The position numbers were made by a program, and so were the translations under genes. 64,000 nucleotides of DNA from Candidatus Bathyarchaeota archaeon. Its GTDB lineage: Archaea; Thermoproteota; Bathyarchaeia; Bathyarchaeales; Bathycorpusculaceae. The number at the start of each line of letters is the position of its first letter. Position 1 is the first letter of the stretch. Shown here piece after piece: positions 1 to 60,588 of this stretch. Below the pieces are notes generated by a model, which saw only the letters and a list, made by a program, of their open reading frames with translations, had not been told where the DNA came from and searched no databases. The stretch spans positions 1 through 64,000 of the forward strand of contig CAVTZU010000020.1 in assembly GCA_963739305.1 (NCBI GenBank), written 5' to 3'.

Positions 1-48
1 TAGCTCCAGATCGATAGCGCGCCTTTTGTTATCCTGCCTTTTTTTGGT

Positions 49-126
49 GTTTGTCGTTAGCTTCAGAAATAGGAACATTAGATCTATTAGTGGTACTGAA
101 AAAGCATAAAGTCAAGGTGTGAGCGC
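49..126 (+). repeat. Degenerate ~78 bp intergenic repeat, family A copy 1
   Basis: Hand alignment to 2053-2129 gives about 59/78 identities with one gap; ends in GAGCGC next to the stop codon of the DUF1801 gene. Confidence 0.85.
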
Positions 127-495
127 TTATTTCTTCTTACCCAAGTTTTCCTTAGCTCTGTATCTTACAATTTTCTTTACCAAATCCAATGGGATAGGTT
201 TGTTTAGGGGAAATCTGATAGTGCCTTTGCCTACCTCATGGCCAGACAATTCCTCTTTGAATGCCTCAATAGCTGAGATCTTGGGATAAAACCCAACATG
301 ATTTTTGAAGGCTGCAAACCATACTAAGATGCCATTCAGTTTGAAAGCAGGCATTTGATAACTAATTAGTTCTTCAGCTTCAGGTGCAGATTCCTTGATC
401 GCTTGTCTCAGTTCTTCTAAAATACTTTGGACATTTTCGGGAAATATGGCAATATACTCATCTATTGTTTTGAATACTTTCCTAGGTGTTGCCAT
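127..495 (-). CDS. DUF1801 (YdhG-like) domain protein
   Basis: TIDEYIA..., ISYQMPAF, FAAFKNHVGFYP, KGTIRFP motifs; ATG at 495 preferred over the longer ORF. Confidence 0.85.
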   Translation of the reverse strand: MATPRKVFKTIDEYIAIFPENVQSILEELRQAIKESAPEAEELISYQMPAFKLNGILVWFAAFKNHVGFYPKISAIEAFKEELSGHEVGKGTIRFPLNKPIPLDLVKKIVRYRAKENLGKKK

Positions 496-614
496 AGTGC
501 TTCCCCGCAATTCGTATTTCCTGGGCAAAAAGGCTCAGAACCTAATAAGCGCTCCGCTTTGATGACTCAAATCACGCGTTTCCTTTTTCAGGGTATTGTT
601 TGCAGGATTGCCAT

Positions 615-674
615 CAGAATAGGGCATTAGAATTATTGTTCTACGTGAAAGAATGTACAGTTAAAACGCGCGCG
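615..674 (+). repeat. Family A repeat copy 2 (more diverged), ending in CGCGCGCG
   Basis: CAGAATAGGGCATTAGAATTATTG...TGAAAGAATGTACAGTTAAAACGCGCGCG aligns with 64-126. Confidence 0.6.
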
Positions 675-726
675 GGTCACAAGTTTATTAATATCAAATG
701 TCATCTCAAAAACTAAGGTGAACAAT

Positions 727-1173
727 ATGGGTGTAAAGGAAAACCTCCAGTTGATGAAAACACTTGATGACGCATGGAATGCCGGACCTAGGAGTCCGCT
801 TTGGGAGACGTTTAAGAAACGTCATAGAGAAGACGTCAAAGTTTACTGGCCCGCTCAACCTCTTCCTACAGTAGGACGACACAGCCACGACGTCGAGGCT
901 ACAGAGTTCTTCAAAACTTTCGACAACAAACTAGTCAACAACCCCTACAAGATCGCCTTCGGTGATGAAGACCACACATGTACCGTTGCTGATTGGACAG
1001 TGACTATGAAAGGACCCATGAAAGGCGCAGATGGAAAGATTATCCAACCCACTGGAAAAACGGCGAAGCTTGAATTCTGCACAGTCGCCACATGGAAAAA
1101 CGGCGAAATCGTCGAAGAAAGGCTATTTTATGATGTTGTCGGGTTTATGAAGCAACTTGGGCTATCCAAATAG
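727..1173 (+). CDS. Ester cyclase / SnoaL-like (NTF2-fold) protein
   Basis: PTGKT...FCTVATWKNGEIVEERLFYD is typical of the SnoaL-like family; TATA-like TTTATTAA at about 684. Confidence 0.8.
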   Translation: MGVKENLQLMKTLDDAWNAGPRSPLWETFKKRHREDVKVYWPAQPLPTVGRHSHDVEATEFFKTFDNKLVNNPYKIAFGDEDHTCTVADWTVTMKGPMKGADGKIIQPTGKTAKLEFCTVATWKNGEIVEERLFYDVVGFMKQLGLSK

Positions 1174-1197
1174 GTCAACCAACTCGCGCGCTTGAAG

Positions 1198-1935
1198 TCA
1201 GCTATGTTCAGGTAAAGACTCATGAGCAAAGCTGCGCGCGCGCTTGCAGTGTTTTGCGCGCTTGTCATATTCTTTGCTGAGCTTTTCGACAGGAAACGAG
1301 CTTCCATGTGAGGGAAGAATCGTCCTGCAACCGAAGTCAATGATTTTCTTCCAGCTTTTCAGCACTTGTTCTGGTTCCTCAGCGTATGGAAACATTGATT
1401 GGAATGGAAAGGAGCTGGCCAAGTCTCCTATGAATGCTTCACCACTTCGTAAAAGAACTGAAACTGAACCTTTGGTGTGACCAGGAGTAAAAAGGACTAC
1501 CCCATCGAACCCAAAATCATCTAGAAGAAGCTCTTTGGAAATCAGAATTTCGGGTTCAACAGGAGTAAAGCTGCGGTCGATTGAGCTGAGCTTGCGACTT
1601 ACGGAAGAAAATATCCTTCTGACAGAGTTTGTTGGTGGCGGCACAGCAATTTGCGCTTCCTTCAAGAGTGCAGCTTCGTTGATGTGGACTGCCACGGGGC
1701 ACTGACAGCTTTTCTTTATTAGAGCAAGTCCGCCGACGTGATCATAGTGAACATGGGTGATAATAATCAATTTGATTTCGCTGGGAGAAATACCTAACTT
1801 GCGCAGGCAATCGAAGAACATTTGCTCCTTGCCCTTACACCCAGCATCTACCAAAATACAACCTTTTTGACCTTTCAACAAATACGCTGTAGCGAGGCCC
1901 ATATGGATTCCGTAGTGTTCAGTCAAAGGAACCAC
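1198..1935 (-). CDS. MBL-fold metallo-hydrolase
   Basis: THVHYDHVGG, TPGHTKGS, FIGD and PSHG motifs. Confidence 0.9.
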   Translation of the reverse strand: MVPLTEHYGIHMGLATAYLLKGQKGCILVDAGCKGKEQMFFDCLRKLGISPSEIKLIIITHVHYDHVGGLALIKKSCQCPVAVHINEAALLKEAQIAVPPPTNSVRRIFSSVSRKLSSIDRSFTPVEPEILISKELLLDDFGFDGVVLFTPGHTKGSVSVLLRSGEAFIGDLASSFPFQSMFPYAEEPEQVLKSWKKIIDFGCRTILPSHGSSFPVEKLSKEYDKRAKHCKRARSFAHESLPEHS

Positions 1936-2052
1936 TCTGATACTCTAAGCTGTTCCGTTCCTTCTGAATATGTGCATGCGCATTAATAATCTCCAGCATA
2001 TGACAACAAACAATCGTAGGCGAAGTGCAGATTTCTGGAGTTTGGTTTCACA

Positions 2053-2129
2053 GTTTGTCGTTAGGCGGGAAAGTGGGACATTAAATTTATTAGTGATACT
2101 GAAAAGGCATTAAGGTTAAGTGCGAACGC
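2053..2129 (+). repeat. Family A repeat copy 3
   Basis: About 76% identical to 49-126 by hand alignment; ends TGCGAACGC. Confidence 0.85.
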
Positions 2130-2161
2130 AAATTCATATGGAAAAACAGAAAAAAGGGGTT

Positions 2162-2218
2162 GCGCGGGAGATATCTCCACTAGGCTGCGTAAATGGGAAT
2201 TTACGCTCTGATTTTCGG
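2162..2218 (+). repeat. 57 bp repeat family B copy 1, with internal palindromes
   Basis: 43/57 ungapped identity to 4341-4397; perfect palindrome GGAGATATCTCC and inverted repeat GCGTAAAT-n4-ATTTACGC. Confidence 0.85.
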
Positions 2219-2228
2219 AGTTCACACC

Positions 2229-2438
2229 TTATTTTCGCTTTCTGAATAACATTATTTCATCATGATTGCAGATGTATTCAAAACGTGCGATCTTCAAACC
2301 CAGCCTCGACAAACTTTTGGGCCTCGCTCATTGCACTGACTATTGCCGAATGATACTCGTCTGTCTCAAACTCTACAAGTTGCGTATAGATCAATGTGTT
2401 ACCGATATTCTTGTGCCCCAACAATCTCATGCGCGCGC
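2229..2438 (-). pseudogene. Tyrosine recombinase/integrase C-terminal remnant
   Basis: RLLGHKNIGNTLIYT (catalytic H and Y box), then DEYHSA...EAGFE/YICNHDEIMLFRKRK*; 5' end truncated at GCGCGCGC 2431-2438; a 16-nt insertion near 2277-2298 shifts the frame. Confidence 0.85.
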
Positions 2439-2493
2439 AGACTGTCGAGTTGCAGCGGAAAGGTGTTTTATAGTGAATAGACACTGTTAGAAC

Positions 2494-2904
2494 TTGGTCC
2501 TTATGCAGCGTCCTAAATGGCTGAGTGGATGGGGAAAGGGGAAGAACCTTTTTGAAGGGTCGCTGATAATAGACATTCCAGACATTAAGGTTGTCGAAGC
2601 TAGCTTCAATAACAAACTGGTTCTTTTTGCTGTCGGGACATTACCGCGGCGTGAAACAGTCGTTTCCGGCGAGAGAAGTGCCGCAGCCATTGAAGAGAAA
2701 CACAAAACCGACTTGGAATGGAGGATATTCTATGATTCAACCGCTCTCCCCGATTTCATACCTATTGACAAAGCTAGAGATTTCATGGCTGGAACCGTTG
2801 CAGTGTCATCTGGAAGCGCGTCTGTTTACAATACAGGCACAGTTTACATCGCAAGCGGCAACAGACCTTCCAAGGGGAACGCTCCCCATCCTTCTGGATT
2901 ATGA
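2494..2904 (+). CDS. Hypothetical protein, possibly a fragment
   Basis: 136 aa ORF, no recognisable motif. Confidence 0.4.
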   Translation: MVLMQRPKWLSGWGKGKNLFEGSLIIDIPDIKVVEASFNNKLVLFAVGTLPRRETVVSGERSAAAIEEKHKTDLEWRIFYDSTALPDFIPIDKARDFMAGTVAVSSGSASVYNTGTVYIASGNRPSKGNAPHPSGL

Positions 2905-3029
2905 AATGGCAAAGAAGATAGAGGAAGCGAGAAAGAAAAATAGGTTGAACTTAATGCGTGCGCTTCAGCCTAATCAGAGCTAGTATGACTGGAAAAATTA
3001 TGGCAACAATCATGCCTAGAACATCCAAA

Positions 3030-3773
3030 TCAGTCGAAGAAGTTGACTGAGACGGTGTAGGAGTCTTCAGCAACGAATTGCAAAGAATTTATTGGATACG
3101 CGGTCCATCCGCCGTCTTCGAAGTCCGGCGGGGTCCAACCCAGAGGATTGGAGCTGCCTGTAGCTTCAACCCATATCCAACCAGTGCCTCTGCCGTCATT
3201 AATATCCCAATAGTCATTTGCGTTCGAGAACTCTGGAAGCCAAATTAATAGAGCACAATGGTCAGTTGCATCAATGACGGCAGCGTCAAAACCTGCACCC
3301 ACATAGATTGTGCCACACAGGAAGGCCATGTCTTCACAGTCTCCGATGGCTTTGACGCCTGTAGTTTCGTTGAAAGCGTGTGCAAATTCGTCAGCGTTCT
3401 GCGCCCACTCGTCTTGGGCGACACCATTTCTGATGAAGTTGTCGCTGTCGTAGCCGTATTCTGTCCATGTTTGAACGTACTTTAGGATGGCAACTGCCCT
3501 ATCGGTCTTACTTGGATAGTTGTTTTGGAACCATTCGCCGATGCTATAAGCCAGTTCCTTGTTATCGCCGAGCGTTTCAGACGCAAGGTTGGGTAAGTAC
3601 CCGGGAAGATCTCCGTTAGTTCCTGCGTTATTCCTGTCTATTCCCCAGTTGTCATACCAGTCACCATTTTGCTGACTGAAGCTTGAAGCTGGAAACCCGC
3701 TGGCTGTTTTGATCAGAGCAACAGCTGACGTGCAGAGAAGCAAGAATAGGATGAGGTATCGCATGTGAGTCAT
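3030..3773 (-). CDS. Secreted transglutaminase-like (papain-fold) protein
   Basis: Signal peptide; GDCEDMA catalytic Cys motif, HCALLI, WIWVEAT. Confidence 0.75.
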   Translation of the reverse strand: MTHMRYLILFLLLCTSAVALIKTASGFPASSFSQQNGDWYDNWGIDRNNAGTNGDLPGYLPNLASETLGDNKELAYSIGEWFQNNYPSKTDRAVAILKYVQTWTEYGYDSDNFIRNGVAQDEWAQNADEFAHAFNETTGVKAIGDCEDMAFLCGTIYVGAGFDAAVIDATDHCALLIWLPEFSNANDYWDINDGRGTGWIWVEATGSSNPLGWTPPDFEDGGWTAYPINSLQFVAEDSYTVSVNFFD

Positions 3774-3789
3774 TTGTTGTCCTCGGCTA

Positions 3790-4269
3790 TCATATTGGGA
3801 TGGTTAGGCTTGCAAACATTATGAGCCCCAAGAAGATTTCGTAACAGAGCAGGAAGACTCCAACAGCCATGGGATGTTTGTTGATGTCGTCTAGTTCAAT
3901 GCCGAATAGCCTGAGTTTGGTAAAGACTAGGCAGAACAAACCGCCGAAGAACAGACTCACGAAGAAGCTGAGGACAACAACGAGAAGCCTCTGCAGGTTG
4001 AAGTAGGCGCCAACACTCACTGACTGCGAAAGGAAGAAGGGGTTAACCATCGAACCGTAAACAACCAAGCCAGCATAAACAAAAAAACCGCCCACAAAAA
4101 GGCTAGTTGCCAGAGAATTACCCTTGATGCTTTCGAACTCTTTAATCTTCGGCGTCAAAAGCGTGATGCTCCTAATTCCAATGTACCCAATCAGCAAACA
4201 AATCAGGCTTGAAACGAAAGCACGGACAAACCACAAGATCAATGATAATAGGAACTCTGAACCAGCCAA
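3790..4269 (-). CDS. DUF350-like 4-TM membrane protein
   Basis: Duplicated TM-(E..IK.N.A.)-TM pattern. Confidence 0.6.
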   Translation of the reverse strand: MAGSEFLLSLILWFVRAFVSSLICLLIGYIGIRSITLLTPKIKEFESIKGNSLATSLFVGGFFVYAGLVVYGSMVNPFFLSQSVSVGAYFNLQRLLVVVLSFFVSLFFGGLFCLVFTKLRLFGIELDDINKHPMAVGVFLLCYEIFLGLIMFASLTIPI

Positions 4270-4340
4270 CTCTATCTCCCAATCAAAGGATACTGTGGAG
4301 CAGCAAATATAACTCTTTCAAAGCGGGCGAGTCTTAGCGC

Positions 4341-4397
4341 GCGCGGAAGATATCTCCAATCAATGCCTTAAATGGAAATTTGCACTTTGATTTGCGG
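4341..4397 (+). repeat. 57 bp repeat family B copy 2
   Basis: 43/57 identity to 2162-2218; starts within the GCGCGCGCG run at 4337-4345; 7 bp beyond the peroxiredoxin stop. Confidence 0.85.
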
Positions 4398-4404
4398 CCG
4401 ATTA

Positions 4405-4885
4405 TCAGGTCATTTGTTCGAGAAATTTCGCGATCTCGGTGTAGCTGGGTTCCACTCTTGGATCTTCCGAAATCCATGCATACCTTACCATGCCTTGCTT
4501 GTCCAGGATGAAGATTGAGCGTTTCGCGGCTGTGTAGCCTGGTAGTCCTCCGAAGTTTTGTAATTCTATGCCGTAGAGTTTTGTGACTTCGCGGTTGTAA
4601 TCGCACAGGAGAGGAAAGTTCAGCATGTTTTTCTCAGCGAATGCTTTGCTTGACCAGGGGTCGTTGACACTAACTCCAACGACTTTAGCTTTGAGAGCGC
4701 CGAGGTTTGCAAGCGAGTCCCTGAACGTGCACATCTCTTTTGTGCAAACGGAGGTGAACGCGCCTGGGAAGAATGCGAGCACGAGGTTGTCGCCTTGGAA
4801 GTCTCTGAGGCTTCTTGATTTGAACTCGTTGTCAACAAGTTTGAAATCTGGGGCTTTCTGCCCAACCTGTACAGTTGGATGTCAT
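4405..4885 (-). CDS. Peroxiredoxin (AhpC/TSA, BCP-like); apparent frameshift just after ATG
   Basis: VQVGQKAPDFKL...FFPGAFTSVCTKEMC; the ATG at 4885 is one base out of frame with the body. Confidence 0.85.
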
Positions 4886-5133
4886 CTTTAATCAACCCTT
4901 GACCTTCGCTTTTCATCTAAATCTCATAAATATATGTGTGTTGTCCTTTCTAGCGGACCGTGACAAATTTCGAGCCAAGACGTCGTGGCAACCACCTTTC
5001 CGACCTTTCGTGGCTGCAGCAGTCTGCTTAGAACATGGTTCTTTTCTGCAATCCGCGAAAGCCAGTTTTCCGAATTCAATCAGAAGCATAAGTCTTATCA
5101 CGGAGAAAGAAGCTGATTCTGTGGAGACGAACG

Positions 5134-5592
5134 TTGAACAGGACAATGTTGATTCTTGTGGGAATTGGCTTGGCAGCAATCATCATTGTCGGTGTTGTCG
5201 CAGGATTTTATCTAACTCAGAATAACAAACCGACAACGACTTTTGACGCTTTGCCGATAGCGACGCCGCAGTGGGATGTTAACCTGGAGAAGCCGGCCGC
5301 TTTCATAAATCTATCAATAAAAAACAATGGAGACATAAATCAGACAAATGTCGTGGTCAAATTGACAGGCGGGTTCTCCAATTCATCAAGCCAAGTGCCC
5401 GCTCAGCTGTATTGGATCGTAACCAAGAACGTAAGCATGATCAAGCCAGGTGAGATATTTACGATCTCAAGGATTTTCGATTTTGGATGGTACTTCTTCT
5501 ACCGAGTTGAAGTTTCCAGCTCGACAGTGACGAAGGAGACATTTGATCAATGGGTGGAGTGGCGATCATGGACAGTGCCACAACCCACTTGA
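5134..5592 (+). CDS. Membrane-anchored hypothetical protein
   Basis: N-terminal TM helix followed by a beta-rich domain. Confidence 0.7.
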   Translation: MNRTMLILVGIGLAAIIIVGVVAGFYLTQNNKPTTTFDALPIATPQWDVNLEKPAAFINLSIKNNGDINQTNVVVKLTGGFSNSSSQVPAQLYWIVTKNVSMIKPGEIFTISRIFDFGWYFFYRVEVSSSTVTKETFDQWVEWRSWTVPQPT

Positions 5593-5697
5593 CAGGTCAC
5601 CGGAGGCTATCTTAGATCTAGAGAATCATTGATTGTAAAACGGAAATTGTTGTTGAATCGCTAAGAGTTATTATTTGCTTTGCTATTGTTGATCTCT

Positions 5698-6327
5698 ATG
5701 GGAATTCTGGATTTCGTCGTGACGATTATTCTCGTCACCGTGTCAGGTGCTTTGGCTCCTGGTCCTTTGTTTTTTGCAAACATTTCGAAGGGAGTTGAGC
5801 TCGGAGCGAGAAGCGGCCTTGTCTTTGCTGTCGCGCACACGATGGTTGAGTTCGGCCTAGTCATGCTGTTGAGCTTAGGGCTTTTCGTGATCAACAGCGA
5901 GCTAGTCCGGACAGTAATTGGCGTCGCAGGAGGCATTGTTCTGATCGGTTTTGGTGTGACCCAAGTCTACGGTTCACTTAAGCCTAGGCCCCAAAGAGTT
6001 GAGGAAAGAGGTAAGGCGAGTTCACGTCGGTTGCTGCTGTTGGGGTTGGCTCTGACCGGTTTGAACCCGTTCTTCATCATCTGGTGGCTTACCGCAGGAG
6101 CGCAGCTCATCGTTATTGCGTTGGAGTTTGCTTCGTTTGCAGGAGTCTTGCTCATGTATGTCTGCCATGTTTGGATGGATTATGTTTGGCTAGCAGGTAC
6201 CGCATATCTTGCCAAGACAGGGATGAAAGTTGCTGGTTTGAAGTGGTACAGAGTATTGACGGCTGTGTTCGGCGTAGTCTTGGTCTACTTCGGGCTGAGT
6301 TTCTTGATCAATTCAATCGTGTTATGA
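5698..6327 (+). CDS. LysE family translocator
   Basis: SGALAPGPL and LNPFFIIWW motifs, about 6 TM helices. Confidence 0.85.
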   Translation: MGILDFVVTIILVTVSGALAPGPLFFANISKGVELGARSGLVFAVAHTMVEFGLVMLLSLGLFVINSELVRTVIGVAGGIVLIGFGVTQVYGSLKPRPQRVEERGKASSRRLLLLGLALTGLNPFFIIWWLTAGAQLIVIALEFASFAGVLLMYVCHVWMDYVWLAGTAYLAKTGMKVAGLKWYRVLTAVFGVVLVYFGLSFLINSIVL

Positions 6328-6344
6328 AGCGCTGTTGATCGCGC

Positions 6345-6674
6345 TTATTTCTCAAGTTCGAGCCCTGCGTGTTGCCACCAGCGTTTCCCACCCTTGAAAT
6401 CCAGCGCGCGACTGTAGCCCAAGTCCAGAAGCTTTCTGGCAGCTTTTGTGCTGGCGTGGCATGTGTAACTGGCACAGTAGACGATGATGGTGTCGGTTTT
6501 TTTCAGTTTCTGTTTGGCGAGCTTTTCCAGTTCTTCCAGCGGGATGTTGATTGCTCCGGGAATGTGTCCCTTGTCGTATTCTTCCTTTGCCAAGACTTCT
6601 ACAAGCTTGAATTCTTCTTTGTTTTCGAGCATCTCAAGAAGGGTTTCCATGGTGATGAACTTTAGCTTCGGCAT
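6345..6674 (-). CDS. Rhodanese-like domain protein
   Basis: GHIPGAINIP, IIVYCASYTC, FKGGKRWW. Confidence 0.9.
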   Translation of the reverse strand: MPKLKFITMETLLEMLENKEEFKLVEVLAKEEYDKGHIPGAINIPLEELEKLAKQKLKKTDTIIVYCASYTCHASTKAARKLLDLGYSRALDFKGGKRWWQHAGLELEK

Positions 6675-7002
6675 ATGAAAAACACCGCTTTATGAGTGAT
6701 TCGGGGTTGGTTCTTAATAGAATTTACTTAGTTCAGTGCCCTGTTGGATTACGATTACACATGATTAAAATTATCGTAAACGAACTGCCCACTGGCGCGC
6801 GCTAAGGTGGCGTACCGCATTTCTTTTGGCAATCTGCACCTGTTTTCAATGCTTTGAGTCGGGCACCTTGAGCTTTTGTCCACGAAGTCTTACAAAAGAG
6901 CGCGCATCGGAAGCGTTACGAATGTACAGCTGGGCTATTGATTCTTGATTCATAATTCTTTAGAATGTAAAGCTCGAAACATGAGGAATTGGTTGAATAA
7001 AG

Positions 7003-7263
7003 TTGACCGCCAGGAAAACCCGAGATTCAAGTTTGACCCTCAGCGTTCCTCTAGATTTAGCTCGGGAAATATTTAGCGAGAGCGGAGACCTGCCAACCGC
7101 AAGGTTCCCGGCCATGATTATTCTCGCCGAAACTATCGGAAAAGCATTGCCTGCATCACACGAAGACGCCAAGAAGAGACCGAAACCCACCATTATCACC
7201 AGAACGAGAAAACCAAAAACTACCCACAGAAAACCCTTCGATCTCCCCATCCTCACTAGGTAA
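7003..7263 (+). CDS. Hypothetical protein (strand uncertain)
   Basis: 86 aa ORF between CG-run sites; competing antisense ORF at 6960-7256. Confidence 0.3.
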   Translation: MTARKTRDSSLTLSVPLDLAREIFSESGDLPTARFPAMIILAETIGKALPASHEDAKKRPKPTIITRTRKPKTTHRKPFDLPILTR

Positions 7264-7295
7264 AAGAAAGCCCCTTAGCGCGCGTGCAGGCAACG

Positions 7296-7820
7296 TCAAG
7301 ATCCGAGTTCTCCGGTGGCCAGGATATGTTTGGCGATCGTAGACATGCTCAACGGCCTCAATAGGTTCTTGCCCTTAAGGTCTACTAGAAAACTCTCAAA
7401 TTCGTTTATATCCGAATAAGGGACCTCTCTGGCAGACCTCTGCGTTTGCCAGTAATCTGCATAGTTCTTGAAGAAAGTGACGAACGCAAAGTCTTTTTCG
7501 AGTCCTATTCCCTTCACAGCAACGAGTTCAGCGTGATGGCGTTCTTTTGCGAATTTGTCCACGAATTTCTGGACTTCTTCTAGCTCTTCACCACTCAAGT
7601 TCTCCTTCATTTTCACAAAAGTGAAACCCATGAGCTCGTATCCAAGCTTGCTGAAATCAGGTATTACAGTGTATTCCTTGATGTATCCTTCTTCCTCAAG
7701 CCTATGAATAGCCCTAGTAACCGTAGGCTGCGAAACGCCGAGCACTTTGGCCAGCTCCCTGTCACTTCGGCGACAATTCTTCATCAACTCGGAGAGCAAA
7801 CGCCTTTCTAAATCCTTCAT
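7296..7820 (-). CDS. Lrp/AsnC family transcriptional regulator
   Basis: RRSDRELAKVLGVSQPTV...LEEEGYIKEYTVIPDFSKLGY. Confidence 0.9.
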   Translation of the reverse strand: MKDLERRLLSELMKNCRRSDRELAKVLGVSQPTVTRAIHRLEEEGYIKEYTVIPDFSKLGYELMGFTFVKMKENLSGEELEEVQKFVDKFAKERHHAELVAVKGIGLEKDFAFVTFFKNYADYWQTQRSAREVPYSDINEFESFLVDLKGKNLLRPLSMSTIAKHILATGELGS

Positions 7821-7954
7821 GAAAACACAACCTCATTCTACTACAAGCTATTATTAGGTGGAACTTCGCTCTTAACTTTTTTCAAAGAACGAAATCGCGC
7901 TGATCGATCAGAGGATGGAAGAGTCAAAAACCGAGTTTGATACATCTGCGCACG

Positions 7955-9025
7955 CTACATGTGCTGACCGGGTTCATAGTCTGCCTTAATGCGGATTCCG
8001 CCGGTCGTCGTTGACAGTGTCACGATAAAATTGCTGGGCGCTGGATAGTTATCCGACTGCAACTGTGACTGCGAACCTGAGAAACGCGTCAGATTCGTGC
8101 TCACTCCGCCAATAGTAGTGCTCGAATTGACCTCCATTCCAACGCTGTCATGAACAGTCGTCGAAAAATCGACGCCGCCTGTGACAGTTCCGGCGTTCAA
8201 AGTCACGTTGCCAGCCATCATGCTGTCCTGTGTGACGTTAACGCCAACGCCTCCTGTTGTCGTCCTGACACTAACTGAAACGTTTCCCTTCACCTTCACG
8301 TTATCCCAATTTAAGCTGGAACCTCCCGTCGTCGATTGAATCACAACCGCGCCGTTGAGGACTACTCCCGAACCAATTGTTGCTTCAGCCTTCCCTGTCG
8401 TCGCTTCTAGATCCAAAGAGTCAAACACCACATCGTGCGAAGCGACTAATGCAACACTTCCCGCAGTGGTTTTCACGTTAAGGGTCACGTTCAAGGATCT
8501 CTCAATCTGAACGTCACAGACAACTTTCAAGCCGCCGAAGAGAGGCCACCACGTACCGTTCCTGGCAATCCTCGCATCCACGAGAATCGCATGACCCGTA
8601 CGCAAAGAATCGACCGTGACGTTCAACGGTTCTGACGGAGCAAACCCGCCGACACCACCTGTCGCGGAAACGTTCAAAGTCATCACGCTCCCATTCAAGT
8701 CACCAAACGTAATGTTAAACGCGGCAACGTCGGCAGTCAAATTCAAGCTTACGGCATTGACTCCTGATTGAGAAGACACCTGCTCAAACCTCGTGAAATT
8801 GACTGGCTGAACTGGCAACAGAAAGAAAACACTGGCAATCACACCGACGATCAGTATTGATCCCAACACAAGGGCCAAGGTGTGAATAGGCCTCCAACCC
8901 CTCCTTGCACCAGGCCTTGAAGGCACACCAGCGGGGACTGATGGCGTTCGAACGGGCGTCCCACACACGTGACAATACTCAGCGTTTTCCTCCAGCTTTG
9001 CGCCGCACTTCCAACAATATGGCAT
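7955..9025 (-). CDS. Zinc-ribbon + TM + DUF4097-like beta-repeat surface protein
   Basis: CWKCG...CHVCG, one TM helix, repeated TTTGG-type beta units. Confidence 0.75.
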   Translation of the reverse strand: MPYCWKCGAKLEENAEYCHVCGTPVRTPSVPAGVPSRPGARRGWRPIHTLALVLGSILIVGVIASVFFLLPVQPVNFTRFEQVSSQSGVNAVSLNLTADVAAFNITFGDLNGSVMTLNVSATGGVGGFAPSEPLNVTVDSLRTGHAILVDARIARNGTWWPLFGGLKVVCDVQIERSLNVTLNVKTTAGSVALVASHDVVFDSLDLEATTGKAEATIGSGVVLNGAVVIQSTTGGSSLNWDNVKVKGNVSVSVRTTTGGVGVNVTQDSMMAGNVTLNAGTVTGGVDFSTTVHDSVGMEVNSSTTIGGVSTNLTRFSGSQSQLQSDNYPAPSNFIVTLSTTTGGIRIKADYEPGQHM

Positions 9026-45109: not shown

Positions 45110-45224
45110 GTTATTTAGTTCTAGTAGACGGCTCAGAAACGATTAGGTTGCTCCATCCATAAGTGGATTGCGTTTGGCACGTAGTATTGCTAGAAATTCT
45201 CCTTGAAGCGCGCACTCTTTCTGT

Positions 45225-58737: not shown

Positions 58738-60588
58738 TTGAAATTCAAACCAAAGACGAATGCAGTGGTTCTTCTAGTCATTCTTTGTTTGACGATTTCG
58801 ATAATTTCCTCCCCGAAGCGCGCGCGTGCTTCGCAAAGCACCCCCACGCTTGCCGATTACCTCAACTCTTGGATCAATAACACGACTTTTGACGACAGCC
58901 CCCTGGCGACGCAATGGGGAATGGTATTCGGCAACAAACAAATGTCAAGCTATGACATTGCTGCGCAAGATGCCGCTGATGCTCAGCGGTGGACGGACGT
59001 TTTTCTAATCAAACGGTCCGCTGAAATCTCTGGCTACGGTTCTCCAGTCTTAGACTCTGCGGTAATAACGGCACTCCAGAATTGCCCGAAGGCTGGTGCA
59101 TTACCTGTCACCTACGGAAACGGGTGGCTCGTGTACGATGGGTTCGCGCTGTGGGCTCCGAAATGGGCAGGAGAACTTGGAGTGGCAGGATGGAATGCCA
59201 CTGAAATGTTCAATCAACTCAAGTATTTCGTCGATCTGTACGGTGGAGGTTTCCTCGTTGCGTATGAGAACTATGCGATTTCCACCAATCAGGCAAACAC
59301 ACGCTACTATGACGAGCAAGCTGAAACTCTACGAGCTTTCGTTATACTTGCGAGGCAAGGCGTTCAAGGTGCGATGGCCTACGCTGACAAGATATGGAAC
59401 CACCTGAACTCCGATGGCTGGTGGACTGGACAATGGTACTGGTACCGTCCTAGCTTGCAAGAGTTTGAATGTGAAATGGGAGGGTTCGCAATGGTAATCT
59501 CTGACTATCTGGGCTACGTTCATCCCAACGTAATTAGCGATCTCGAGTCAAAGCTTCTGGCTCATGGTTGGGACAGCCCTTGCTGGCAGAACAACGGATC
59601 CAGGTACGTGATCAACCATGCAAATTTTCCGAACGGTGCAGTTGTTACGGCTGAAATGCGCCCCGGGGAGACTCTTGCTGTGTGGAGAGCCCTTCAGTCG
59701 GTTTATCCAAGCATGCCTGTAGAGGATCAAGAAACCATCACCAACATGCTTTCTGGTTCAGCATGGTACAACGCCATAACCAGTGGAGCTTATGACAATG
59801 GCACAGCGCGAAGAGTGACTGGAGCGGCCGTCATGTTTCTAATGGGCATTATACCAGAAACAGGAAGCCTCAACCTAGGATACCGTGAAGAAGGCTACGT
59901 TACCAACACCGAGATTATCAAAAGCAACAACCTTGCGTTTGACTACGATGGTCGACGGATTCGCATATCACTCTTTGCCGGAAGCCTAGGCTTCAATTTC
60001 GGAACCACCCCCGTTTCCTACAGTTTTAACGAAACAGGAATCTATGATGTGTACTTTTCAAGCGACTGGAACACAGTGAAGGAGGCCAATTACTTGGGCT
60101 TGGATAACGATACCATACTGACACCCCCCAAGGCGGTCTTCACCTACGAACCGCTCAACTTCTATGTCAACATGACGGTGACTTTCAACGCCACGTCGTC
60201 GAAGCCTGGCTGGAACGGCACGGCTCAGTCGCCGATTATAGACTATCGATGGGATTTTGGAGACGGAAACATTACTGAGGGAGATTATCCAACGATAACA
60301 CATGATTACACGACGCTCGGAAAGAAAATGGTAGGATTGACAGTGGCTGACGCCGCCGGATATACGGGTTACACTCAGCAAACAGTTGAAGCGCGCGCGA
60401 CCTACCTCATCGATTTGAACGGCGATGGCATTTTTGATATCTACGACGCCGTGTTGTTTGCAGGTGCATTCCACTCAGTCCTTGGCAGCTCAAACTGGAA
60501 TCCTAGGGCAGACTTAAACGGCGATGGCGCCGTCGACCTTTACGACGCTGTAATCTTGGCAAGCTACCTAAAAGGAAGCCACCCATAG
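58738..60588 (+). CDS. Secreted modular protein: signal peptide + unknown domain + PKD + dockerin-like
   Basis: YRWDFGDG (PKD); DLNGDGIFDIYD and ADLNGDGAVDLYD (dockerin-type repeats). Confidence 0.85.
   Translation: MKFKPKTNAVVLLVILCLTISIISSPKRARASQSTPTLADYLNSWINNTTFDDSPLATQWGMVFGNKQMSSYDIAAQDAADAQRWTDVFLIKRSAEISGYGSPVLDSAVITALQNCPKAGALPVTYGNGWLVYDGFALWAPKWAGELGVAGWNATEMFNQLKYFVDLYGGGFLVAYENYAISTNQANTRYYDEQAETLRAFVILARQGVQGAMAYADKIWNHLNSDGWWTGQWYWYRPSLQEFECEMGGFAMVISDYLGYVHPNVISDLESKLLAHGWDSPCWQNNGSRYVINHANFPNGAVVTAEMRPGETLAVWRALQSVYPSMPVEDQETITNMLSGSAWYNAITSGAYDNGTARRVTGAAVMFLMGIIPETGSLNLGYREEGYVTNTEIIKSNNLAFDYDGRRIRISLFAGSLGFNFGTTPVSYSFNETGIYDVYFSSDWNTVKEANYLGLDNDTILTPPKAVFTYEPLNFYVNMTVTFNATSSKPGWNGTAQSPIIDYRWDFGDGNITEGDYPTITHDYTTLGKKMVGLTVADAAGYTGYTQQTVEARATYLIDLNGDGIFDIYDAVLFAGAFHSVLGSSNWNPRADLNGDGAVDLYDAVILASYLKGSHP

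Follow-up and report, generated by a model that had tools for sequence, protein, structure and literature searches.

The window analysed here, a stretch of 64,000 nucleotides from a Candidatus Bathyarchaeota archaeon, carries at positions 2229-2438 of the minus strand the last ~66 codons and the stop codon of a tyrosine integrase, together with an adjoining alternating CG octamer, GCGCGCGC (2431-2438), at which the remnant is broken on its 5′ side and a cassette shared with other genomes has its left boundary. The remnant is read in two frames. The first (MRLLGH...LIYTQ...AGFE, 2293-2430, minus strand) translates as MRLLGHKNIGNTLIYTQLVEFETDEYHSAIVSAMSEAQKFVEAGFE, is preceded by ...VCAR and contains the second conserved His together with the catalytic Tyr box, while the second ((A)RFEYICNHDEIMLFRKRK, 2232-2288, minus strand, stop codon at 2229-2231) corresponds to the family-typical C-terminal tail, ...EAGFEYVC...MLFRKRK. 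Alignment of the DNA with four paralogues placed 16 extra bases, with TTTGAA duplicated, within 2277-2298 (minus strand), where they shift the frame; the insertion is absent from all four paralogues, and the open reading frame at 2278-2484 (68 aa) terminates at ...FEDRTF. The LLGH and Tyr box is retained in the remnant, as is the terminal ...LFRKRK. Its RLLGHKNIGNTLIYTQ segment aligns to columns G226/H227 and Y236 of the family, with H227 and Y236 invariant in an alignment of 22 sequences, which bears out an earlier note that had read the LLGH...Y box as carrying the catalytic His and Tyr.

Neither the remnant nor its 120-aa open frame matched any Pfam entry, even at E values up to 10, and its identity therefore rests on its paralogues and database relatives. 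The 68-aa frame matches ten other places in the window's own genome (G000; 2.32 Mb in 36 contigs) with a best E value of 3e-17, and the full-length paralogues L008 and L010 match PF00589 at 1e-16 to 1e-21. The remnant has 68 database relatives of 120-395 aa, nearly all of which carry PF00589 and several of which are named 'integrase' in their source records. The family is common in Bathyarchaeia metagenome-assembled genomes (MAGs): the great majority of 80 related loci in a species-representative collection are titled Candidatus Bathyarchaeota or Bathyarchaeia MAGs.

To locate the break, we built a profile HMM of 298 positions from 37 database relatives of at least 255 aa and ran it over the six frames of 2101-3200 with all heuristic filters off. 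The profile aligned only at model positions 234-283 (E value of 2e-21) and 280-298 (E value of 2e-7); nothing else integrase-like was found in these six frames, and a profile search revealed no second integrase piece anywhere on the 150-kb contig. No similarity is seen in the alignment at the three octamer-encoded residues (CAR) that precede the Met, and where the window reads GCGCGCGC the closest paralogue reads TTCATGTG. Since the profile aligns nowhere upstream, homology begins, to within three codons, at the ATG at 2428-2430, which abuts the octamer. The claims of the earlier note that a tyrosine-recombinase remnant is truncated exactly at the octamer and that no recombinase motifs lie upstream were thus confirmed, and the profile alignment does not continue past 2438. 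We also considered an extension of the integrase to 2535, suggested by a tblastn match of paralogue L010 at 29% identity, and rejected it, because the filters-off profile stops short of it and because 2439-4329 lies in a block shared with genome G009, where the other flank is unrelated. A resemblance of FRTLH/HYKT to the HxxR region, judged by eye, was likewise not supported by the profile.

Model positions 1-233 have no homologous counterpart in the remnant, so that the upstream Arg, Lys and His-x-x-Arg as well as the N-terminal DNA-binding part are missing. The gene is dead, both by 5′ truncation and by the frameshifting 16-base insertion, and what is left of it is not an enzyme.

Just 3′ of the remnant's stop codon, at about 2160-2218, lie a short degenerate CG run (GCGCG) and a 57-nt repeat (family D1; 2162-2218) that begins in the run and holds the palindromes GGAGATATCTCC and GCGTAAAT..ATTTACGC. 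A second copy (75% identity) is located at 4341-4397, just 3′ of a peroxiredoxin-like open reading frame. Both copies lie 8-11 nt past the stop codon of a minus-strand gene, and the repeat could be a terminator-like or site-like module. An overlapping motif of ~33 nt (2148-2180), made up of an A-run, GGGGTTGCGCG and GGAGATATCTCC, reached a summed contig depth of 232 and 508 in two of four metagenome runs, compared with about 20-50 around it. Contigs enter unlike sequence on both sides of this motif, at 2148/2149 and at 2179-2181, and genomes from across the order contain matches to it at 84-92%.

A palindrome iterated throughout the genus

The window contains 15 copies of GCGCGCGC, compared with a mean of 0.86 and a maximum of 6 in 100 dinucleotide-preserving shuffles. 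Scaled to 2.32 Mb, this shuffle expectation amounts to ~31 copies; the genome holds 359, or ~1 per 6.5 kb, while the other GC-only 8-mers occur 1-14 times each. The lengths of alternating CG runs peak at 8 nt (202 runs), followed by 9 (96) and 10 (48), with 11-13 nt reached in 5 runs and no longer run present, whereas the other five dinucleotide alternations (AT, AC, AG, CT and GT) decay monotonically with length. The octamer is flanked by A/T: among 348 runs, the base at position −1 is A 197 times and T 108 times, A is preferred before and T after the octamer, and conservation stops within ~2 nt. Its phase is fixed in this genome, with 143 copies of GCGCGCGC flanked by A or T (W) versus 13 of W-flanked CGCGCGCG.

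Outside open frames of at least 120 aa lie 69% of 351 runs, compared with 14% of 5000 random positions. The runs are also clustered (150 of 316 spacings are below 1.6 kb, versus 68 expected), and octamers are frequent in variable regions of the genome. Clustering of 992 CG-run flanks yielded nothing beyond pairs and three groups of four, for the most part strain duplicates, so the runs do not form the cores of any large repeat family. All ten genomes of the same genus are rich in the octamer, with 11-170 W-flanked copies against 1-21 for the reversed control, and 26 of 30 genomes of other genera from the same family or order hold at most five W-flanked copies, the exceptions being G018 (24), G032 (20), G027 (11) and G039 (7). 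Collectively, the octamer is an iterated palindrome found genus-wide, mostly intergenic and clustered. A limited literature search found no report of it in archaea.

The cyanobacterial HIP1 element (GCGATCGC), for which links to site-specific and illegitimate recombination or excision are reported (PMC4390886), resembles the octamer in being an 8-bp GC-rich palindrome that is strongly over-represented and lineage-specific. The octamer differs in sequence and in its archaeal host, is much rarer at its one copy per several kilobases, and is mostly intergenic and clustered in variable regions; moreover, its role at junctions is seen directly in genome comparisons. HIP1 also has orphan DNA methyltransferases that recognise its core, whereas no matching C5 methyltransferase pattern exists for the octamer: PF00145 was found in 4 of 41 genomes and in 2 of the 10 of the same genus, is absent from G000, and showed no HIP1-like link. 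In phyletic tests, the octamer excess was tracked neither by PF00145 nor by the integrase family or the C26-type integrase described below. Among known systems, HIP1 is the nearest analogue of the octamer, which appears to be neither HIP1 itself nor an attC or SSV att site.

Gene blocks and other homology breaks at octamers

To the right of the remnant's octamer lies a 1.9-kb block of three open reading frames (block, 2439-4336; frames at 2494-2904 on the plus strand and at 3030-3773 and 3790-4269 on the minus strand), bounded on its right by a GCGCGCGCG run (4337-4345). Counterparts of 2431-4345 at 91-95% identity, bounded by CG runs and set in other contexts, are present in two sister species, G009 and G005, while ordinary genes common to these genomes share only about 66-76% identity. 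The segment 2431-4329 is 91% identical to contig C10 of G009, where CG runs occur at both ends, and 3066-4329 is 95% identical to contig C18 of G005. On the left side, the flanks in G000 and G009 show no relationship as far as the octamer, from which point homology starts. On the right side, homology stops 13 nt short of the run of G000, and G009 and G005 share a different flank beyond theirs; with 13 and 19 extra bases in G000 between the shared sequence and the octamer, the junctions are not perfectly conservative.

A second block of the window, carrying a SnoaL-like gene (block, 667-1243; open reading frame, 718-1173), lies between CG runs at 667-674, 1185-1191 and 1234-1243, and its segment 710-1214 is 89% identical to contig C7 of G009, with octamers on both sides in that contig. 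The run at 1185-1191 reads CGCGCGC where the otherwise collinear G009 sequence (L123) reads gcgactcag, which shows that octamer-like runs can appear in place, without a break in homology. Just before this block lies an element of ~95 nt (574-666; ...gtttgcaggat...gccatcagaa...acattagatttatt..., with a TATA-like AGATTTATTA) that ends at or near CG runs and recurs at C17:5855-5918 and C13:155206-155249 as well as in G009:C9 and G004:C47/C80/C159; in G004 and G009 it is found just upstream of integrase stubs. It is possibly a portable promoter.

The assembly of G000 mixes close strains (estimated contamination, 7.8%), and many contig pairs (for example C2/C3/C6, C13/C17, C7/C31, C23/C35 and C29/C35) are 95-99% identical over 2-10 kb; the mixture provides natural pairs of empty and filled sites, and it also means that copy counts include duplicates. 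In one such pair, contig C3 has the empty site, ...cgtgta-GCGCGCGC-tgggcag... (L-GCGCGCGC-R), and contig C2, with the same flanks, has the filled site, L-GCGCGCGCG-4.2 kb-GCGCGCGC-R; the 4.2-kb insert encodes two secreted dockerin-like genes. Genome-wide, 28 of 485 distinct ends of intragenomic matches (at least 80% identity over at least 100 bp) fall within 3 nt of a run, compared with 0.16% of 5000 random positions.

Not every junction is of this kind. Of seven indels of at least 30 bp between near-identical contig pairs, one is flanked by runs on both sides and another on a single side, which makes the octamer only one of several junction types. Some ends of high-identity segments in the window also lie away from runs, for example at about 45205-45215, and the 10-20 nt beside an octamer can differ between copies.

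We further compared the locus with contigs from four metagenome runs, in which bins without cover (2229-2375 in X4 and X5, and both flanks in X5) do not signify absence. A contig of run X5, from another study, departs from the block at 4318, reading on as AGCGCGCGCT... into dissimilar sequence, and contigs of other runs diverge from the block at 2455 and at 4318/4325. In X4 and X5, contigs part from the block at 2455, and the 30 loose letters displayed there include no octamer. In the four runs, no contig joined across the block, and the joints listed (3039/3091 and 4527/4727) are unrelated to octamers. A contig of run X1 covers 2081-2606; it is not an independent confirmation, because X1 may be the source sample.

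Taken together, the shared blocks, the empty and filled sites and the excess of match ends support the CG core of the octamer as a real recombination or indel junction. Judged from these genome comparisons, the octamer probably marks places where gene blocks have been swapped in, swapped out or cut back in the genus.

Three further features of this genome may be recorded here. A 207-nt non-coding repeat has copies at C20:123046, C8:44381, C17:52473 and C36:67731, and only its copy at C18:31164-31386 has GCGCGCGC on both sides; octamer-bounded units therefore need not be genes. Two CG runs of the window (60391-60399 and 58818-58826) fall within the open frame, 620 codons long, of a secreted protein, and one of them, read in frame as Ala-Arg-Ala, directly precedes a dockerin-like module (…TYLIDLNGDGAVDLYDAV…), which hints that protein modules are also joined at octamers. 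Finally, the genome has a second junction site, GTAAAGTTTTATCC, in 27 copies (for example at C8:6360, C8:9054, C2:12129, C2:12760 and C30:1987), most of which have inverted arms of the GGTTTGGG type on the left and of the CCCAAACC type on the right. Direct copies of this site flank two strain-level insertions of 2.7 and 0.6 kb, with a single copy at the empty site. At up to 3 mismatches, the window gave one hit, at 3 mismatches, which is chance level, and GTAAAGTTTTATCC was accordingly scored as not present in it. By its architecture, the site resembles a classical recombinase core and may be the actual site of the integrases.

Truncated integrases and the search for an enzyme

A profile search of G000 found 28 integrase pieces, of which 14 are 3′ stubs, far outnumbering 5′ pieces. 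Because C31 duplicates C7 and C17:2719 duplicates C13:152948, these stubs represent 12 independent loci. Eight of the 14, or 6 of the 12 independent ones (C7/C31, C8, C10:1674, C13:152948/C17:2719, C14 and the window), start no more than 3 nt from a run of at least 8 nt, compared with 0.16-0.4% of random positions that close to a run. The other six have no run at the break: the stub at C13:67363 has one 34 nt upstream, and those on C1, C9, C17:95239, C27 and C29 have none. Several stubs have a further run 5-10 nt past their stop codon. The break points in G000 fall at model positions 221, 233 and 260-265, and over all genomes examined they scatter over positions 106-276.

The same pattern was observed in relatives. 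Among 14 truncated-looking loci in other Bathyarchaeia, two (L071 and L086) start at a run, and so do 4 of 17 profile hits at 15 loci of relatives (in G012, G032, G002 and G001), with shorter GCGCG(C) runs at two further hits; at G006:C119, the octamer cuts an integrase on its 3′ side. Genome G012 has 14 octamers in all, one of which is found 2 nt upstream of the Met codon that also marks the break in the window stub, and three independent stubs (window, G012:C16 and G032:C4) break 0-2 nt from this codon; such a shared break point is not predicted by purely random end points. In G004:C159, G004:C80, G004:C47 and G009:C9, a common upstream flank is followed by GCGCG(C)TGC (GCGCGTGCT), after which the integrase resumes at model positions 263, 263, 260 and ~231, respectively. 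One flank with varied integrase starts suggests nested one-sided deletions from a fixed point. Some stubs adjoin tRNA genes (C14, tRNA-Ile; C7/C31, tRNA-His; C17, tRNA-Asn), and at the tRNA-Ile locus G000:C14 has TCGCGCGC in place of 28 nt of G009:C7. An Rfam search of window positions 1-8000 at E values up to 1 gave neither a tRNA nor another plausible RNA, so no tRNA adjoins the window stub. Since 3′ stubs are also common in octamer-poor relatives, the formation of stubs is general, and only the octamer edge is special to the lineage.

The earlier note had proposed this integrase family as the enzyme acting at the CG-core sites, and the phyletic distribution speaks against it: 37 of the 41 related genomes have the family, among them octamer-poor ones (family hits versus flanked octamers of 11 and 3 in G012, 9 and 1 in G028, 7 and 0 in G040, and 6 and 2 in G026). 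A variant that we regard as doubtful, although it is the strongest of the alternatives, is an integron-like arrangement in which the family recombinase, or a sub-clade of it acting in trans, would exchange cassettes at the octamer, with stubs as by-products when an octamer recombines with a secondary site within an integrase gene. It draws on an intact divergent family member at C26:10940-11959, which is followed by seven CG runs in 2 kb separating short open reading frames, on the fact that octamers touch stubs even in the octamer-poor G012, and on the low sequence specificity of recombination by some archaeal integrases reported in a review (PMC8371274). Besides the family's presence in genomes with few or no flanked octamers, several observations weigh against it. 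Close homologues of the C26-type enzyme (at least 57% identity) occur in only 3 of 10 sister genomes, and the copies of the C26 element in G000 and G009, which are 97% identical, diverge at a T-run 38 nt past the stop codon and not at an octamer. Tyrosine recombinases normally require conserved arm sequences around their core, whereas no conserved arms extend beyond ~2 nt from the octamer; a different repeat, in which inverted GGTTTGGG arms flank TAAAGTTTTAT, comes closer to such a core site. The likeness to integrons lies in recombinase-free, gene-sized blocks with a recurring site that occur in different contexts, sometimes as arrays beside an integrase. Integron attC sites are 60-140 bp long with structured flanks, whereas the octamer is a bare 8-bp palindrome without such flanks, its junction-proximal sequence varies by 10-20 nt, and it also bounds gene fragments and non-coding pieces.

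As an observation on these enzymes in their own right, the full-length integrase frames at C13:2141-3154, C26:10805-11959 and C15:3468-4442 of G000 start inside tRNA-like sequence of the opposite strand, translated as ...GFEPGS... and ...WDLNPGS.... What the C26 element has in common between G000 and G009 is exactly the tRNA-like piece and the gene, as expected of tRNA-targeting elements. A further intact integrase is located at C25:17967-18968.

A less probable alternative still, which we hold to be quite unlikely, treats the stubs as domesticated mini-genes, in which the C-terminal ~60-80 residues from the conserved Met would be kept as a small protein, for instance against incoming integrases, with the octamer supplying or adjoining expression signals. 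The Met codon shared by the three independent stubs, the 82-codon open frames that the C13 and C17 stubs keep to ...FRKRK/FKKRK, and the preponderance of 3′ over 5′ pieces would all fit such retention; however, the window copy is frameshifted, that of G009:C9 has stop codons, stub starts vary widely and many stubs have no start codon.

The earlier note had also likened the locus to SSV-type integrase genes, which are split by the element's own att site upon integration, and had called for a matching N-terminal fragment that ends at a CG run. The window indeed shares with such genes the sharp break of an archaeal tyrosine integrase fragment, as described in PMC7253208 and PMC8371274, and some of the stubs adjoin tRNA genes. 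In the 12 longer, full-length or remaining integrase loci checked, however, there is no CG run of at least 7 nt and hence no octamer att site in intact genes, the nearest run lying 85 nt downstream of one copy. Furthermore, none of the 28 profile hits in G000 is an N-terminal fragment, or Int(N) partner, ending at a run: the piece at C10:6098-6833, which ends before the 3′ part of the gene, has its nearest run 499 nt away, and for the integrase pieces checked on C29 the distance is 721 nt. Suicidal integrases carry PF16795 (Phage_integr_3) and their Int(C) holds the catalytic domain (PMC8371274; PMC7253208), while here the remnant comprises only the extreme C terminus and the full-length paralogues L008 and L010, which match PF00589, gave no match to PF16795 at E values up to 0.1. 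Together with the varied break points and the lack of an Rfam match near the window stub, these findings make self-splitting very improbable. Most improbable of all is a mere coincidence between an ordinary truncated pseudogene and a common intergenic word: variable regions are rich in octamers and the earlier note had its attention on CG runs, but half of the independent stubs start at a run, far above the rate for random positions, and the pattern recurs in other genomes.

Origin of the stub and role of the octamer

The remnant with its exact break, the excess of the octamer across genome and genus, and the coincidence of octamers with homology breaks and with other stubs were observed directly. 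The reading that we prefer, with a probability of roughly 0.6, is that the stub is the dead 3′ end of an integrase gene and was the victim of an octamer-anchored insertion or deletion, not its agent. The proposal of the earlier note that this copy was broken by an event at a CG core thus holds in that the octamer is a real junction and the break lies exactly there, and is not supported in naming the family's own integrase as the agent. According to our preferred reading, a decayed integrated element would have left the stub, whose 5′ end would be the junction with a mobile three-gene block bounded by GCGCGCGC. The octamer would serve as a general junction site in the genus, with blocks of DNA inserted or removed between octamers and one-sided, octamer-anchored events eating to variable depth into neighbouring DNA. 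One such event would have removed the first ~230 codons of the window integrase, either through insertion of the block into the gene, whose 5′ part was then lost, or through an adjacent deletion, and the 16-base frameshifting insertion would represent later decay. This direction and order of events at the stub is what we infer from the comparisons, as is a dedicated lineage-specific activity that makes or uses octamers.

How such an activity would work can be approached from two sides. The clean pair of empty and filled sites favours a conservative exchange at the octamer, while the variable 10-20 nt beside it and the run that arose in situ favour a break-and-join process with restoration of the octamer. 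Ends of transposable elements (IS) make one-sided adjacent deletions, and the combination of one fixed end with variable neighbouring end points, yielding nested truncations, is shared with them; here, in contrast, neither a transposase nor terminal repeats were seen beyond the octamer.

A bolder reading, to which we give somewhat less than even odds, is that GCGCGCGC, specific to the genus, might be an archaeal counterpart of HIP1 and the universal joint of cassette exchange and element pruning, operated by an enzyme of an undescribed kind, with the integrase stubs as its scars. Gene blocks, gene fragments and even protein modules would then be moved, swapped between species and trimmed at the octamer.

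The remnant itself is an ordinary pseudogene, and it is the junction signal revealed by it, not the remnant alone, that is of interest. Its sharp edge exposes a lineage-wide sequence signal by which gene flux seems to be organised in Bathyarchaeia-like archaea, which are abundant, uncultured inhabitants of sediment and peat. If the octamer is truly a recombination joint, it would provide a simple handle for mapping mobile blocks and recent transfers between species in MAGs, would help to explain how integrated elements are cut back, and would offer a lead in the search for a new recombination or end-joining activity. The octamer also constitutes an independent system in which to address the 30-year-old question of what HIP1-like palindromes do.
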